This document shows positions 13,053-51,125 of a stretch of 64,000 nt of DNA, piece by piece. This stretch comes from a phage. Where the stretch lies: the sequence record PQ478073.1, one strand, 5' to 3'. The translations under genes and the position numbers were made by a program. Positions within the stretch are counted from its first letter, which is position 1. Each line of letters opens with the position of its first letter. Under the pieces are notes generated by a model, which worked only from the letters and a program-made list of their open reading frames with translations, did not search any database and was not told where the DNA came from.

Positions 13053-13388
<336 letters not shown>

Positions 13389-13389
13389 A

Positions 13390-13572
13390 ATGACACACGA
13401 AGAATGGATGTCCAAACAGCATAAAGAACATGACTGCTTTGGGAATGGCATTCGTCAGGTACATTATGATATATTAAGAGATGAAAATCTTTTCAGGTCA
13501 TATGTTTTGGATACCAGAAAACCCTGGTTTATATGCGAACTGGCATTTAGAAAGTCAAATAATCAAAACTAA
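13390..13572 (+). CDS. MTHEEW-family mini-protein
   Basis: paralog; upstream DNA TTAATTGNACTGGATACATAAA shared with 12871 copy. Confidence 0.55.
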   Translation: MTHEEWMSKQHKEHDCFGNGIRQVHYDILRDENLFRSYVLDTRKPWFICELAFRKSNNQN

Positions 13573-13588
13573 ACAAGGAATACAAAAA

Positions 13589-13807
13589 ATGAAAACAACT
13601 TTATTTGAAGTTATTCAATCATTAAAACCTGAAGATGAGGTTCAAGTACTACTACATGGTTATCGTGTAAAAGGTACTGTGGTTTTAGTCAATGATACAA
13701 CATTGGTTATTACAGAAACAAACCCATATGATAGTAATCAACTTGCCAATATCCATATCGATATCACTGGAATTATTGGTGTCGGTGTATCTAAAACACT
13801 TGCATAA
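13589..13807 (+). CDS. hypothetical protein
   Basis: start moved to ATG 13589 (MKTTLF), SD AAGGAA. Confidence 0.45.
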   Translation: MKTTLFEVIQSLKPEDEVQVLLHGYRVKGTVVLVNDTTLVITETNPYDSNQLANIHIDITGIIGVGVSKTLA

Positions 13808-13860
13808 ATCATTAATTCATTATATAATGATTATCACTGGTTCTAGATGAGGATAATATT

Positions 13861-14133
13861 ATGCATTTTGAAAAATTCAACGTAAATCGTAACACACGCA
13901 TTGAAGTTCTTTATGAAACTCAAGACACCATTAGTATTCGTACAAATAGTGGGGATGTATATCATGACTGTACGATTGGCTGGGAACAGGGAAGAACGCG
14001 TAGTGCAGTATTTGATAATTATCGCTTTTATCAAGGAGACACTACGATTTGGCCTGAATACGTAGAAGATATTGCGTTTGAAGATGAACATAAAGATGAA
14101 TTTATCAAATTTAATCCTCAAACTGAATCATAA
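13861..14133 (+). CDS. hypothetical protein
   Basis: ORF 90 aa; SD GAGGA. Confidence 0.5.
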   Translation: MHFEKFNVNRNTRIEVLYETQDTISIRTNSGDVYHDCTIGWEQGRTRSAVFDNYRFYQGDTTIWPEYVEDIAFEDEHKDEFIKFNPQTES

Positions 14134-14150
14134 ATAATGGGACATCACAT

Positions 14151-14266
<116 letters not shown>

Positions 14267-14270
14267 AAAT

Positions 14271-14372
<102 letters not shown>

Positions 14373-14377
14373 AAACC

Positions 14378-14538
14378 ATGACGCATGAAGAATGGATGAA
14401 TGACATTAATTTTAGATATGCAGGTTTCGGTAACTGGAGAAAGTATCATTGGGAAATCATGTCAGACCCAGCAGAATACGATAAACTTATAAACCATGAA
14501 GCGTATCCGTGGTTCTTTATTGAAATAATGGTACGAAC

Positions 14539-14542
<4 letters not shown>
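14378..14542 (+). CDS. MTHEEW-family mini-protein (54 aa)
   Basis: paralog immediately after tRNA pair. Confidence 0.5.
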
Positions 14543-14704
<162 letters not shown>

Positions 14705-14713
14705 AAAAAAAGA

Positions 14714-15126
<413 letters not shown>

Positions 15127-15193
15127 CTAAATAATTCAGTACTGAGGATATTAATATGTTTAAAGATGAACGTCCAGATTTGTAAAAAGTACT

Positions 15194-15221
15194 TGACTAA
15201 ATAGTTTAGTACTGATATAAT
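15194..15221 (+). promoter_or_regulatory. promoter cassette TTGACT-N16-TATAAT with CAGTACTG-like box
   Basis: copy of 14714 cassette; followed by ~360 nt lacking a convincing ORF. Confidence 0.55.
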
Positions 15222-15585
15222 GAATTCCACAATCAGACGTATATGGTGTAAGTTACGTCGATGCAATCCAGAACAAGATCTCTGGTACTCTAGGAAGTGG
15301 TGAATGTTAACCTAGACGGGTTTGATAATTGGACGATAGGCAATTATTACTTGACTAGCAGGTTGAAACTAGAGGTGACAGTCCTTCACCAAACTGGAAA
15401 ACCGGATGGACTTTTATTTAAAAGGGTAAGGCGTGGAAATATGTTTACAGAAGTTGCTTTTAGTAGCCTGTACGCCCCACGTCAAGGTAGCCGAAAGGCA
15501 AGTTAAAACGGATGGTTATAAAGCTGAATTAACAGCGGCGTTTAAAAGCGTCACCATCCATTTTTTTTTAATTAAAGTTGGTGAT

Positions 15586-15964
<379 letters not shown>

Positions 15965-15975
<11 letters not shown>

Positions 15976-15994
15976 TTTTCAGTACTGATATAAT
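15965..15994 (+). promoter_or_regulatory. putative promoter (TGGACA-N18-TATAAT) for tRNA-Ser(GCU)
   Basis: -10 hexamer 7 nt upstream of tRNA 5' end. Confidence 0.45.
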
Positions 15995-16000
15995 TAATTT

Positions 16001-16237
<237 letters not shown>

Positions 16238-16310
16238 CTTTTTAATTTAAAAGTACTTTACTGTAGTGTTTAGTACCGTATAATGTAAACAAAAGGATAA
16301 AATAAAACTC

Positions 16311-16835
<525 letters not shown>

Positions 16836-16857
16836 TTAAAAAATCAGTACTTTATTA

Positions 16858-17242
<385 letters not shown>

Positions 17243-17255
17243 TTCACATGATATA

Positions 17256-17931
<676 letters not shown>

Positions 17932-17943
17932 CGGGTATTATAA

Positions 17944-18353
<410 letters not shown>

Positions 18354-18354
18354 T

Positions 18355-18489
<135 letters not shown>

Positions 18490-18491
18490 TA

Positions 18492-18548
<57 letters not shown>

Positions 18549-18549
18549 A

Positions 18550-18581
<32 letters not shown>

Positions 18582-18633
18582 TACCAAGCAGCTTGAAGAA
18601 CTTTGTAGTGCTGCACCTATGCCGACTCTTGGC

Positions 18634-18734
<101 letters not shown>

Positions 18735-18746
18735 TATCTTACTTCT

Positions 18747-18836
<90 letters not shown>

Positions 18837-30106: not shown

Positions 30107-31072
30107 GTGAAAAAGCTTGATTTAAATACAATTGCCGAAGAAGTTCTGGATGAATGTTTTGCTAATGAAGAAGTCAACACACTAGAAGCCTTAGATTTCG
30201 TTGAAGATAAAGATGATAATGAAGGTAAAGTACAAAGCAGTTTCAAATATAATATTACACTTAAGCGACCACCAAATGTTTCCAATGAAGATCTAATTCG
30301 TGATATTCAAGCTGGTATCAATGTAAAGAAAAACACTGAACTGTTAGTTCGTTACAATTATGGACTGATTATTGATGTAGCAAGTAAATGTACATGTTAT
30401 ATCCCATTTGAAGATAAGATTTCATATGGTGTTGAGGGGTTCATGAGAGCACTAAAAACCTTTGATCTTAATAAGAATGTTAAGTTCATTACCTATGCTT
30501 CTTCTAGTATTTACATGACAGTCTATAACGAAAGTTCTGACGCTAACTATATGGTACACTTCCCACGTTATATGAGTGTTCATAAGATCAAAGTAAAAAG
30601 ATTCTGTCAGGAATATATGCGTAAACATGGTGTTCGCCCAACTCCTGAAATAATCTCAGAGGGTACTGGGATTGAGATTCAGCATGTTAATAATTGTTTG
30701 TTATTTCAAAGCGAATACACTTCGCTGGATGCACCATTAGACGGTGTTACAGATGGTACATTAGGTGACATTATTCATTCACCTGCTTCTGATTTTAACC
30801 TCAATGTTGATAGTATCCGTGCACCTTTACGTTATGCTATCAATGAACTGACTAACGAATTGAGTACTAAAGAACGTGAGATTATCCAGCGTGTTCATGG
30901 TCTAGGTGAATATGAACCTGAAACGCTTCGTGAGATTGCTGATAATGGTTTTGTTGATGATAATGGAAAATATGTTAAATCCCGTTCATCAATACACCGA
31001 AAGTACAGTGAAGCTATGCAAAAGCTTAAGAAGTTAGTACTTGCAAAAGGGTACGAATACGAAGATTTCTAA
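30107..31072 (+). CDS. sigma-70 family RNA polymerase sigma factor (regions 2 and 4 recognisable)
   Basis: 321 aa, GTG start with AGGAG SD; region 2-like LVRYNYGLIIDVASKC ... VEGFMRALKTFD ... FITYASSSIYMTV; C-terminal HTH-like EREIIQRVHGL ... TLREIA ... MQKLKK. Confidence 0.65.
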   Translation: MKKLDLNTIAEEVLDECFANEEVNTLEALDFVEDKDDNEGKVQSSFKYNITLKRPPNVSNEDLIRDIQAGINVKKNTELLVRYNYGLIIDVASKCTCYIPFEDKISYGVEGFMRALKTFDLNKNVKFITYASSSIYMTVYNESSDANYMVHFPRYMSVHKIKVKRFCQEYMRKHGVRPTPEIISEGTGIEIQHVNNCLLFQSEYTSLDAPLDGVTDGTLGDIIHSPASDFNLNVDSIRAPLRYAINELTNELSTKEREIIQRVHGLGEYEPETLREIADNGFVDDNGKYVKSRSSIHRKYSEAMQKLKKLVLAKGYEYEDF

Positions 31073-31080
31073 AGAACAAG

Positions 31081-31105
31081 GGTTGGCTTATGCCAACCTT
31101 TTTTT
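31081..31105 (+). terminator. intrinsic terminator
   Basis: stem GGTTGGC/GCCAACC, loop TTAT, then TTTTTTT. Confidence 0.7.
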
Positions 31106-31629
31106 ATGGGATGAAGTAAAAGTTTGTGATATAATTATCTTGTACAATTCTGTTGGCATGATATTCATGTACCTGATCCACTCGAAAACGTAGAGGGCAG
31201 TTGAGCAGTCCGACAGTGCGAACAGCAAAAGAAACCCGTTAGATGTGGGCATAGTTTGAACCCCTCACGGCAATGCGGCTGTATAAAGAACCACGTTAGG
31301 ATAGCTGGTGGTTCCTTGATAGACATATAAGGATAACACCTTACGAATTATCTAAGGGAGAGTTATCGAATTTTGTACAGGAAAGTTGCGTCCAAAATTT
31401 GAGTACTCACATTAAGTATTTGATTGCATAGATACTTAATGAAGATACACTATGTTTAAAAGTGTAGACCGTCATATGAAACTGAAGTAGAGAGAAACAG
31501 GATGACCCGCTTTCGCACTCGTTATGAGTAATCTTCAATGCAATAGCTCTGATACCATCAGCGTCAAATTTCCCTCCTTGTGGGGGGAAGAAAAATCCCT
31601 TCCTCAAATCCCGTCAATATTAAAAGTCC

Positions 31630-31658
31630 TTGACAGTTATTAATCATTCGCGTAGAAT
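31630..31658 (+). promoter_or_regulatory. promoter TTGACA-N17-TAGAAT
   Basis: hexamers upstream of 31723 gene. Confidence 0.5.
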
Positions 31659-31722
31659 ACGTAGTATTAGAAGCGAACAGACATCTCGAAGAGATGGATG
31701 ATTAACCATTAAGGAATATCCA

Positions 31723-31932
31723 ATGAATTCAGTAATCTTTTTAGTAGTCGCTTTTTCTGTTAATTCCGGTGTACAAATAACCCCAATGAATTCCATGAAT
31801 CAATGTATAGCAGTACGTGATAGTACATACGAACAAGTAAACAAAGATATTTGGATTACAGTTAATAAAGAACAAATGTGGTGTTACAATAGTAATACTA
31901 ACACAAAGCTTATTGTAGGACAAACTCAATGA
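31723..31932 (+). CDS. small secreted/membrane protein
   Basis: ORF 69 aa; hydrophobic N-terminus; SD AAGGAA. Confidence 0.5.
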   Translation: MNSVIFLVVAFSVNSGVQITPMNSMNQCIAVRDSTYEQVNKDIWITVNKEQMWCYNSNTNTKLIVGQTQ

Positions 31933-32159: not shown

Positions 32160-32948
32160 ATGAGCACTATCGATGAACTGATTCAACGGAATTCAAAATA
32201 TTACCAACCATCAGAAATTGTGGATAACATTACTAAATCTGAGTTTGGACCGAACACACGCAAACTCATTCATGTAATGTCACGTGATGGCTTTAAATGT
32301 GATTGTTGTGGTGAATCAAATGTAGTATTCACTTTACATAAGCACAGTACTAAAGAACGTTATAAATTCAGACCTTATGTACTTAAAGGGAAACGCCTTG
32401 TACGCATGACGTTAGACCATAATGTACTGGACTGTCTTCAGGGCGGTAATGATAAAGAGAACATGACTGCACTGTGTGAAGATTGTAACGCATTACGCCA
32501 GCATAAGTTTGCTGAATACAGTGAGTTTAAACACTGGTATCATAACGCGGATCGTTCAATCGAGCCTGACGTTAACTACTGCTTCATTGAGTACATTAAG
32601 AATGCCAAAGATACATACATTCTTAAATCAATGTCACCTATTACCGTGTTTCCTGAGAACCTATTCACTACATTAAAGAATAGTTTTATTGTAGGTGATA
32701 TTGATGCATTCAAGTATTTTGACAAAGGTGCAAAACATTTTGAAATTCAATGTCTTAGTACTGCACTATGTGAACTCATTAAAATTTACATAAAAGAGTA
32801 TTTGGGTATTGACAATGTACGTGTACCAGAGTATACTTTTTCTATTGAATTCGATTGTGAATCAATCAAAGAGTTTGGAATTCTTTTCAATAAACAAATA
32901 GAACTTGCAATTCAAAACGAAATCAAGTACTATACTACTAACATTTAA
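32160..32948 (+). CDS. HNH endonuclease domain protein
   Basis: 262 aa; CDCCGE ... H ... LDHN ... GGNDKEN ... LCEDCNALR (His-Me finger with Cys pairs). Confidence 0.7.
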   Translation: MSTIDELIQRNSKYYQPSEIVDNITKSEFGPNTRKLIHVMSRDGFKCDCCGESNVVFTLHKHSTKERYKFRPYVLKGKRLVRMTLDHNVLDCLQGGNDKENMTALCEDCNALRQHKFAEYSEFKHWYHNADRSIEPDVNYCFIEYIKNAKDTYILKSMSPITVFPENLFTTLKNSFIVGDIDAFKYFDKGAKHFEIQCLSTALCELIKIYIKEYLGIDNVRVPEYTFSIEFDCESIKEFGILFNKQIELAIQNEIKYYTTNI

Positions 32949-39002: not shown

Positions 39003-39194
39003 ATGTTGATTTATCAAAGTGATAATATTCGTGTTATGCAGCATCCCTACTTACAAATCTTTGATGTGCAGCAGTATATGGAAGGTGATGACCCAAGAAC
39101 CTATGGTCGTAAGTATGATTACTTCACTGTAAAGCAGTGTAAAAATATTAACGAAGTACGACAATTAGTTCAAGAACTTCAAAACAAAGGTTGA
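39003..39194 (+). CDS. small hypothetical protein
   Basis: start moved to ATG 39003, SD AAGGA. Confidence 0.45.
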   Translation: MLIYQSDNIRVMQHPYLQIFDVQQYMEGDDPRTYGRKYDYFTVKQCKNINEVRQLVQELQNKG

Positions 39195-39220
39195 CTTCGG
39201 TCAGCCTTTTTTGTTATAAT
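39188..39220 (+). promoter_or_regulatory. bifunctional cassette: terminator hairpin (AGGTTGAC-TTCG-GTCAGCCT, T-run) overlapping promoter (TTGACT-N18-TATAAT)
   Basis: UUCG tetraloop hairpin + T6; -35 TTGACT lies inside the stem. Confidence 0.65.
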
Positions 39221-49804: not shown

Positions 49805-49810
49805 AGAAAA

Positions 49811-49843
49811 GGGTTGACTACGGTCAGCCCTTTTTGCTATAAT
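49811..49843 (+). promoter_or_regulatory. bifunctional terminator/promoter cassette (GGGTTGAC-TACG-GTCAGCCC-T5; TTGACT-N18-TATAAT)
   Basis: perfect stem; cassette plus 5'UTR near-identical to copies at 51093 and 52814. Confidence 0.7.
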
Positions 49844-51086: not shown

Positions 51087-51092
51087 CATAAA

Positions 51093-51125
51093 GGGTTGAC
51101 TTCGGTCAGCCCTTTTTGCTATAAT
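51093..51125 (+). promoter_or_regulatory. bifunctional terminator/promoter cassette (GGGTTGAC-TTCG-GTCAGCCC-T5-GC-TATAAT)
   Basis: canonical copy; identical 5'UTR ATCATTTCATCAACTCAAGAGG as 52814 copy. Confidence 0.7.

Follow-up and report, generated by a model that had tools for sequence, protein, structure and literature searches.

What does a long gap without open reading frames (ORFs) encode in the genome of a jumbo phage? The question arises at positions 31,106 to 31,722 of a 64,000-nucleotide (nt) stretch of phage DNA (PQ478073.1), hereafter called the window. This stretch belongs to an Asteriusvirus (121Q/PBECO4-like) jumbo coliphage and is 99-100% identical to G17, phAPEC6, 121Q, PBECO4 and slurp01 (BLAST against GenBank phages). 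The gap lies between a sigma-70-family gene (30107-31072, Pfam r2/r3/r4) and a small ORF with its ATG at 31723. A first-pass annotation of the letters alone had proposed a candidate structured RNA or a regulatory hub. We find strong support for a self-contained RNA gene at 31127-31622 (+ strand), consisting of a promoter, a core of ~430 nt and a conserved G-rich 3' module. Very probably, its product is a functional, trans-acting structured RNA of a new class.

An ORF-free gap conserved among Rak2-like phages

The gap had been described as free of credible ORFs and richer in GC than its surroundings, and both descriptions hold. Only short chance ORFs of at most 66 amino acids (aa) overlap 31073-31722, and the region has a GC content of 0.394 versus 0.335 for the window, which places it at the 97.5th percentile of 617-nt windows. 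The longest ORFs of 49 homologues had a median length of 62 aa. Since the complement is pyrimidine-rich, open frames on the minus strand were spread over all three frames (32/27/20). An intact gene in relatives that is merely disrupted here, which the annotation had named as a finding that would speak against an RNA, was not encountered: no ORF was conserved in position or frame across the homologues.

Several GenBank records contain short 'hypothetical protein' coding sequences (CDSs) inside the RNA gene on either strand (GAP32_503A, 7t3_0445-0447, Kaldavass CDS0100-0102, JNE01, BAU.Micro_ELP-22 and others), and the UE-S1 record labels part of the element as repeat_region. Such entries in homologous gaps are what speaks for a decayed or unannotated coding sequence, either small ORFs or a pseudogene. 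However, the gap bears no annotation in most curated records, no reading frame is shared, and the substitutions within helices are compensatory (see below). We give a coding origin practically no weight; the annotated CDSs, which are not conserved, are probably over-predictions.

A sensitive BLAST search with the gap alone returned 71 phage records, all of Rak2-like jumbo phages of Enterobacterales hosts plus two labelled Xanthomonas, with 3-5 separate matching places per record. At 15 of the 15 loci inspected, the match occupied an ORF-free gap of 610-770 nt, and the flanking genes differed. Asteriusvirus alone has the sigma factor gene next to the RNA; in Eneladusvirus, Mimasvirus, 7t3 and Kaldavass the RNA lies in other contexts. 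The proximity to a sigma factor, to which the annotation had drawn attention, is thus incidental. In the alignment, the conserved promoter was followed by a conserved core (window ~31150-31567) and a conserved 3' module reaching to ~31622.

To extend the family, IMG/VR was scanned for the exact motif CGGCAATGCGGCNNNATAAA and further with a second motif, and metagenomes and GTDB genomes were scanned as well. Several positions in each complete genome matched CGGCAATGCGGCNNNATAAA. Profile screening with nhmmer then separated true members (E 1e-33 to 1e-128) from chance motif matches. The window copy matched the family profile over its full length (E=1.4e-116 over 31137-31622) and carries the joiners CGGCAAUGCGGC, GAUAGACAUAU, AAGGGAG, GACCGU and AACCCGC by which members are recognized. 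After screening, true members in IMG/VR, metagenomes and GTDB were confined to Rak2-like or resembling contigs and one Enterobacteriaceae metagenome-assembled genome (MAG); plasmids, scanned likewise, held no copy.

Within single genomes the copies are widely spaced. Five are found in Yersinia phage fHe-Yen9-04 (about 24.5, 93, 174, 260 and 335 kb); of the three or more in phage 121Q, the window copy lies near 90 kb and two others near 193 kb and 327 kb. A search for internal repeats in the window found none, and the window contains one RNA copy only. Clustering (mean pairwise distance 0.32) resolved paralogue classes that are common to several genera and occupy syntenic positions; the duplication is therefore ancient. 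The sigma-adjacent copy in ph0011 (L014) clusters with the '327 kb' type of 121Q, and the sigma-adjacent copy of TH47 (L003) resembles, by eye, the '193 kb' type, which suggests that paralogues may swap between loci by recombination.

Covariation reveals a core with two pseudoknots

From a covariation scan and manual curation we derived a structure model of 100 pairs in 18 helices, including two pseudoknots. It was evaluated on an alignment of 49 members with pairwise identities of at most 96% (A1). Standard pairs were formed in 86.0% of 4496 cells, compared to 36.6-42.8% in slid controls, in which the 3' partners were shifted by 1-3 columns. Double changes, affecting both sides of a pair, were found in 72 of the 100 pairs. 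Double-change cells numbered 725 against a shuffle mean of 219, and none of 500 shuffles attained the observed value for any measure, although related sequences can beat such a shuffle control without being structured. Here, both the slid controls and the diversity of pair types speak against relatedness as the only explanation.

Independently, RNAalifold recovered P1 (in a better register), P2, P3-P7, P10, P12-P14 and P16 from A1. The initial columns of P15 were misaligned (27% paired) and the initial register of P1 reached 72%; both were replaced, by per-member folding and RNAalifold. Helix cells contained 292 G.U versus 137 A.C combinations. This excess, together with the orientation of promoter and terminators, identifies the + strand as the RNA.

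Thus, a core of ~430 nt with about 16 helices is strongly supported (Table 1). Its 5' domain (P1-P7) is built of multi-helix junctions with invariant purine-rich joiners, and its 3' domain (P9-P15) is, with equally strong support, locked by two pseudoknots. About 110 columns are invariant, mainly in joiners: UGAG, GCAAAAGAAAC, CGGCAAUGCGGC, AUAAA, GAUAGACAUAU, AAGGGAG, GACCGU, GAAACAG and AACCCGC. UGAG is enclosed by P1, GCAAAAGAAAC lies in the P4-P5 region together with invariant CAAUGCG, and GAUAGACAUAU connects P6 and P7. The pseudoknot PK, between the loop of P9 and the 3' strand, first surfaced in the covariation scan. The 3' pseudoknot core, in which each of the helices P11-P14 has 3 to 5 covarying pairs, includes GAAACAG and AACCCGC. 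P15 occurs as a GAYGM-loop-KCGUC hairpin in most members when the segment is folded member by member.

The comparative analysis that had been proposed as a check therefore yielded compensatory changes as well as conservation across genera, and the candidate structured RNA of the first-pass annotation is borne out by its own promoter, extensive compensatory changes and two pseudoknots.

RNAalifold also paired GAC (31321-31323, in the joiner GAUAGAC) with GUC (31613-31615, in the terminal CGUCA), corresponding to A1 columns 267-269 and 689-691. Every position of this pairing is invariant, hence beyond the reach of covariation. Besides its place at the end of the 3' module, CGUCA is found once more, where P15 ends.

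Table 1. Coordinates of the RNA gene and of adjoining features in the window.
Feature	Position	Strand	Details
RNA-gene promoter	31107..31135	+	-35-like TGGGAT (31107-31112), 17-nt spacer, extended -10 TG-a-TATAAT (31127-31135; TG at 31127-31128)
P1, long-range helix	31150-31156 / 31210-31216 (within 31150..31216)	+	RNAalifold register; up to 19 double changes per pair
P2, hairpin inside P1	31157-31161 / 31165-31169	+	17-26 double changes per pair
P3, hairpin inside P1, loop GAAAACGUA	31173-31183 / 31193-31200	+	91% paired; 7/8 pairs covary
P4	31222-31226 / 31278-31282 (within 31222..31282)	+	100% paired; three pairs covary (AU/UA, GC/CG, UA/AU)
P5, inside P4	31236-31239 / 31267-31270	+	100% paired
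P5a, inside P4	31247-31249 / 31261-31263	+	
P6 hairpin	31288-31294 / 31308-31314 (within 31288..31343)	+	7/7 pairs covary; 91% of cells paired; also found by RNAalifold
P7 hairpin	31328-31332 / 31339-31343	+	85% paired; also found by RNAalifold
P8 arm with relocatable module	31360..31408; stem 31368-31375 / 31393-31400, loop 31376-31392	+	Module profile search
P9 hairpin	31410-31419 / 31432-31441 (31410..31441)	+	10/10 pairs covary; 90% paired
Pseudoknot PK, P9 loop with 3' strand	31423-31429 / 31538-31544	+	99.7% paired; 7/7 pairs covary
P10 hairpin	31446-31451 / 31461-31466 (31446..31466)	+	5/6 pairs covary; also found by RNAalifold; invariant GACCGU next
P11, 3' pseudoknot core (31471..31544)	31471-31475 / 31502-31506	+	100% paired; crosses P12 and P13
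P12	31483-31487 / 31533-31537	+	99.6% paired
P13	31490-31494 / 31510-31514	+	99.6% paired; 4/5 pairs covary
P14	31517-31520 / 31526-31529	+	89% paired
P15 hairpin	31550..31567	+	GAUAC (31551-31555) / GCGUC (31561-31565), loop CAUCA; ends CGUCAA
Conserved 3' module	31569..31622	+	P16 hairpin, spacer, invariant CAAAUCCCGUCAA (31605-31617)
Intrinsic terminator of the sigma factor gene	31078..31101	+	Terminator scan; annotated terminator in phage G17; ends the preceding transcription unit
Sigma-70 promoter TTGACA-N17-TAGAAT (31630-31658) and 5' leader of downstream small ORFs	31630..31722	+	Promoter scan, ORF list; outside the RNA

A relocatable hairpin on a constant core

The P8 arm, preceded by the invariant joiner UAAGGGAG (31353-31360), ends in a hairpin module of ~33 nt with a conserved 17-nt loop (UACAGGAAAGUUGCGUC in the window, family consensus UACAAUAUAGAUCCGUC). 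A profile search located this module in P8 only (25 of the 49 members), in P14 only (10) or in both arms (8), and did not detect it in 6 members, five of which have, by eye, a variant module in P14. Arms that are devoid of the module often end in a short loop such as GAAA, GCAA or GUAA.

Differences between paralogue classes are confined to the periphery: an insertion at P5a, the arm that bears the module, whether a terminator is present and, for the 24-35 kb class, a 5' hairpin plus U-run. The cores of the joiners are identical in all classes. We also looked for a guide-like variable single strand that differs between paralogue classes and found none. A relocatable periphery on a constant core would thus fit a compact tertiary fold or a protein-binding handle.

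In the 24-35 kb class (L016, L017, L020, L029, L036 and L037), a GC-rich hairpin and TTTTTT stand between the -10 box and the conserved RNA start. This arrangement looks like an attenuator or 5' terminator, which could make the expression of that paralogue conditional.

Copies in bacterial chromosomes

A full-length member (nhmmer E=1e-110) is located in the chromosome of E. coli LR-29-1 (NZ_AP027515.1, ~3479.0-3479.6 kb; L086:7911-8545). The same island RNA is also present in E. coli strain EEC_W5, with NZ_CM130020.1 noted as second record; in total, 2 of 5426 complete E. coli genomes are positive. The LR-29-1 copy comes complete with a TGATATAAT promoter of its own, terminator and 3' module, and lies within a low-GC island of ~10.7 kb integrated beside ffs. 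Other genes of the island encode a recombinase, an integrase that is disrupted by IS3, and the dual-OB, DUF488 and DUF4326 proteins of PDC-M45, a candidate defence system. Only the RNA module of this island matches phage DNA, best the 174-kb copy of Serratia phage BF (80.6% identity). The ~700 nt past the RNA (L086:8550-9256) are likewise unannotated.

The second chromosomal member (E=8e-72) was found in the Enterobacteriaceae MAG CAUSEC010000004.1 (~182.4-183.0 kb; L192:6390-7035). It resides in an AT-rich insertion downstream of thiM/thiD; a CI-like repressor (S24 peptidase plus helix-turn-helix) is divergently encoded ~200 nt away. Judged by its gene context, this would be the position where moron or immunity-region genes sit in a prophage or satellite.

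The complete module, comprising promoter, RNA, terminator and 3' G-rich element, can thus spread horizontally en bloc, and its function presumably does not depend on phage-specific neighbours.

Promoter, 3' end and the origin hypothesis

The pattern TGRRAC-N17-(TGn)TATAAT is found upstream of nearly all family members. The -10 box TATAAT noticed by the first-pass annotation is therefore genuine and conserved, although its position is 31130-31135 and not 31131-31136. The start of the RNA is predicted near 31142-31144. Phage tRNA genes in the window use the same TGnTATAAT type of promoter (e.g. at 14158 and 15986).

Many copies have an intrinsic terminator directly after ...AUCAKCGUCAR, which corresponds to window ~31567. 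As the terminator follows straight after P15 in these paralogues, the core RNA likely ends at ~31567. No such terminator is seen here in the window copy. Further downstream, the 3' module includes P16 (31572-31577/31582-31587), the CCCTCC..GGGGGG hairpin that is found in all members and accounts for the G/C-rich complementary segments pointed out previously. P16 is 86% paired, and its changes are one-sided C/U exchanges only, opposite an invariant G run. The spacer can pair alternatively with the G run, in the window copy through GGAAG (31586-31590) and CUUCC (31599-31603).

This conserved 3' module is the main observation that favours an R-loop or origin function, and an origin primer RNA is the main rival to a discrete trans-acting RNA. 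T4-type phages use promoter-dependent R-loop origins. By analogy with T4 oriF/oriG, ColE1 RNA II and mitochondrial CSBII, each copy would be a replication origin at which the promoter-driven RNA forms a persistent R-loop, perhaps via the invariant G6 run, and primes the leading strand; the fold would position or process the primer. With this agree the 3-5 copies at conserved positions, roughly 70-85 kb apart in a genome of ~350 kb, the strong promoter at each of them, and an invariant G run that lies just past the core on the RNA-like strand and is kept even after a terminator. Islands or prophage-like elements that capture such a copy could, moreover, exploit the replication machinery of a helper phage. 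A primer, however, would have no use for two pseudoknots, a tertiary module that relocates and invariant joiners totalling ~110 nucleotides. The G run is cut off from the RNA by a terminator in many copies, the window locus displays no strand switch or other origin signature, and the islands are without recognisable replication or packaging genes. We therefore consider an origin function unlikely.

Could the element instead act in cis, as a leader, attenuator or DNA-level element that controls downstream early genes, with the RNA as by-product? Between the window copy and the downstream genes no intrinsic terminator is obvious, a terminator-like hairpin follows right after the promoter in the 24-35 kb class, and each copy is followed by a promoter region (of the TTGAC type after other copies too). 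But the downstream genes are unrelated between copies and genera, many copies terminate and are followed by a separate strong promoter, and the chromosomal copies have unrelated neighbours. Furthermore, compensatory changes and the asymmetry of G.U over A.C indicate RNA rather than duplex DNA. A cis-regulatory leader or riboswitch was rejected on these grounds, and we hold any such role to be very improbable. For the proposed regulatory hub we found no support: the TTGACA-N17-TAGAAT promoter at the 3' end of the gap is real (11/12 positions match) and serves the downstream genes, not the RNA.

The RNA belongs to no known family

The failure of the first-pass annotation to place the RNA in a known class is consistent with our Rfam results. 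At gathering score, Rfam 15 (4227 models) detected only tRNAs elsewhere in the window. With E<=10, the region 30900-31900 gave only weak unrelated matches at terminator-like sequences, and none of 12 homologous loci had a match inside the element. ARAGORN identified 7 tRNAs at 13-19 kb and none at 31.1-31.7 kb, and no tmRNA model matched. Full-text searches of the literature retrieved no description of the RNA, and its signature strings occurred in no relevant paper. That is, the RNA family is previously undescribed and a member of no curated RNA family.

Among specific candidates, RNase P RNA was rejected, as no model matched at E<=10. The motifs CAGUGCGAACAGCAAAAGAAACC and ACAG..ACCCGCUU, which we take to resemble regions of RNase P RNA, did not alter this: GAGAG, 16 nt upstream, is the partner of the CR-V-like CUUUC (P13), and a long-range P4 is absent. 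Group I and group II introns were rejected too, as neither Intron_gpI nor group-II or domain V models matched at E<=10 in the window or the 12 homologues; CAAUGCGGC and AACCCGC resemble the P/Q elements of group I introns, but the CR-V/Q-like strand has a local partner. An intron insertion also conflicts with the organization of the locus: the upstream sigma factor gene ends in a stop codon followed by a terminator, the element comes with a promoter of its own, and the flanks vary between copies.

A ribozyme, or the remnant of a mobile one, would be a divergent ORF-less group I/II-like intron, an RNase P-like or another mobile RNA, whose mobility would be reflected in the multi-copy distribution and in horizontal transfer. 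Size, conserved joiners, pseudoknots and swapping peripheral elements are indeed reminiscent of large ribozymes, and the element is multi-copy and present in unrelated genomes. Against this stand the lack of any intron, RNase P or other ribozyme model match at E<=10 in the window and 12 homologues, and the location outside any gene under its own promoter. In addition, CUUUC has a local partner in GAGAG (99.6%, covarying) instead of a distant CR-I-like strand, the paralogues, being ancient and syntenic, are no recent insertions, and no target-site duplications or terminal repeats were seen. We judge such a descent highly unlikely.

A probable trans-acting RNA of a new class

We favour a functional trans-acting structured RNA. 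According to this interpretation, host RNA polymerase would make the RNA early and abundantly, and the multiple diverged copies would serve dosage, their divergence with compensatory changes preventing recombination between repeats. The RNA would then act in trans and stoichiometrically, as a compact particle, and neither as a base-pairing guide nor as a cis-regulator. Possibly, the relocatable hairpin grips a conserved macromolecule of host or phage, for which the RNA would serve as scaffold or sponge; alternatively, it could be an ornate RNA that self-assembles, as GOLLD and ROOL do. If the RNA acts in trans, we tentatively prefer a ribonucleoprotein scaffold or sponge as its mode of action; a ribozyme appears rather unlikely and a homo-oligomeric particle somewhat more so, other modes making up the remainder.

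Several observations weigh against this interpretation, apart from the limit of the shuffle control given above. First, the G-rich module (C-run/G-run hairpin, spacer and CAAAUCNCGUCA) is found in 49 of 49 members, even past a terminator, and its presence beyond the terminator in many copies is not accounted for by a simple 'discrete RNA' model. Second, the folding energy of the single sequence is unremarkable (z = -1.6 for the + strand, -1.9 for the - strand), so that the more-than-chance status of the fold derives from conservation across genera and covariation. Third, neighbouring proteins are not conserved, and no partner protein, ligand or substrate was identified. Fourth, the ncRNA001/ncRNA002 region of phage PA5oct, whose non-coding RNAs are compared below, has no similarity to the family profile (nhmmer, all filters off). 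Finally, no transcriptome study of any Rak2-like phage was found in the literature, and start site, 3' end and abundance are all inferred.

A more far-reaching version is possible, if doubtful: a new RNA machine, either a large ribozyme or a self-assembling RNA particle, that is needed at high dose and was captured by islands and prophages for phage-host or phage-phage conflict. The need for a high dose would then explain 3-5 recombination-proof copies under tRNA-type promoters, and captured copies might act as decoy, sponge or antidote in a defence context.

To our knowledge, few large structured RNA classes of bacteria and phages exist: rRNA, RNase P, tmRNA, group I/II introns, OLE, GOLLD, ROOL, raiA and HEARO. 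Each of them is mechanistically rich. Comparative support for the large structured RNA family described here is strong: it has 49 non-redundant members, two pseudoknots and a module that can relocate. Unusual in its biology are the several ancient paralogues within one genome and the transfer of the complete module to sites beside a candidate defence system and a CI-like repressor. It also corrects the annotation of several GenBank records, in which spurious 'hypothetical proteins' were called inside the RNA. As the RNA occurs in culturable coliphages of E. coli K-12 (121Q, PBECO4, phAPEC6 and G17), its function, its partners and its three-dimensional structure are directly testable.

Neighbouring genes and other features of the window

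The 262-aa ORF at 32160-32948 is called 'HNH endonuclease' in records of the 121Q type. It has Cys-rich motifs and no Pfam match at E<=0.01, and may encode a homing endonuclease; in other genera it is unlinked to the RNA. A shared partner protein was considered and rejected, as the ~260-aa ORFs near different copies (window 32160-32948, BF_0519, CBB_524, XbC2_54 and EJP02_440) are mutually unrelated except for the BF/CBB orthologues. None of these ORFs has a Pfam domain.

The 7 tRNA genes of the window cluster at 13075-18826 and include three tRNA-Ser genes, one with anticodon ACT according to ARAGORN. At several of them, a separate TGnTATAAT promoter lies just ~10 nt ahead of the mature 5' end (e.g. 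at 14158, 15986 and 16878).

A 34-nt composite element, AGGGTTGACTTCGGTCAGCCCTTTTTGCTATAAT, occurs four times in the window (39187-39220, 49810-49843, 51092-51125 and 52813-52846). In this element the TTGAC -35 box lies inside a terminator stem, the T-run forms the spacer and an extended -10 box follows. One element therefore ends one transcription unit and starts the next.

Comparison with known systems

Primer RNAs such as ColE1 RNA II and the T4 oriF/oriG transcripts are, like the new RNA, promoter-driven, structured and ~0.5 kb long, with a G-rich element near the 3' end and several places in the genome. The sequence and structure of the new RNA are far more conserved, however, and many copies have a terminator ahead of the G run. 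In T4-like phages, group I introns share several copies per genome, a length of 250-500 nt, a pseudoknotted core and peripheral tetraloop-type elements, but the new RNA is not inside a gene, has its own promoter and lacks recognisable splice-site helices. Bacterial RNase P RNA is of similar size and also combines long-range helices, a pseudoknotted core and conserved purine-rich joiners, whereas several paralogues, as found here, would be unexpected for it.

GOLLD and ROOL (Rfam RF01998 and RF03087) are intricate non-coding RNAs of 400-800 nt with many conserved joiners and pseudoknots. They form RNA-only homo-oligomeric cages, as revealed by cryo-electron microscopy (PMC12286853). The new RNA resembles them as a large, multi-helix, pseudoknotted RNA encoded by a stand-alone gene in phages and prophage-like elements, and on neither side is a biochemical function known. 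It differs in that it has no homology to either (no Rfam match at E<=10), resides in jumbo phages of Enterobacterales with 3-5 diverged copies per genome instead of one, and is not adjacent to tRNA genes, the nearest being 12 kb away.

Finally, phage PA5oct, a distant relative of the 121Q/Rak2 group, encodes ncRNA001-004. These are ORF-less, actively transcribed 'putative lncRNAs' (long non-coding RNAs) of 236-619 nt that were defined by RNA-seq, two of which amount to 2-5% of phage reads throughout infection (PMC7318152). For the PA5oct RNAs, in contrast to the RNA reported here, no structure has been described. As in the Rak2-like phages, there are several per genome, and the PA5oct lncRNAs are the closest published analogy to the new RNA.

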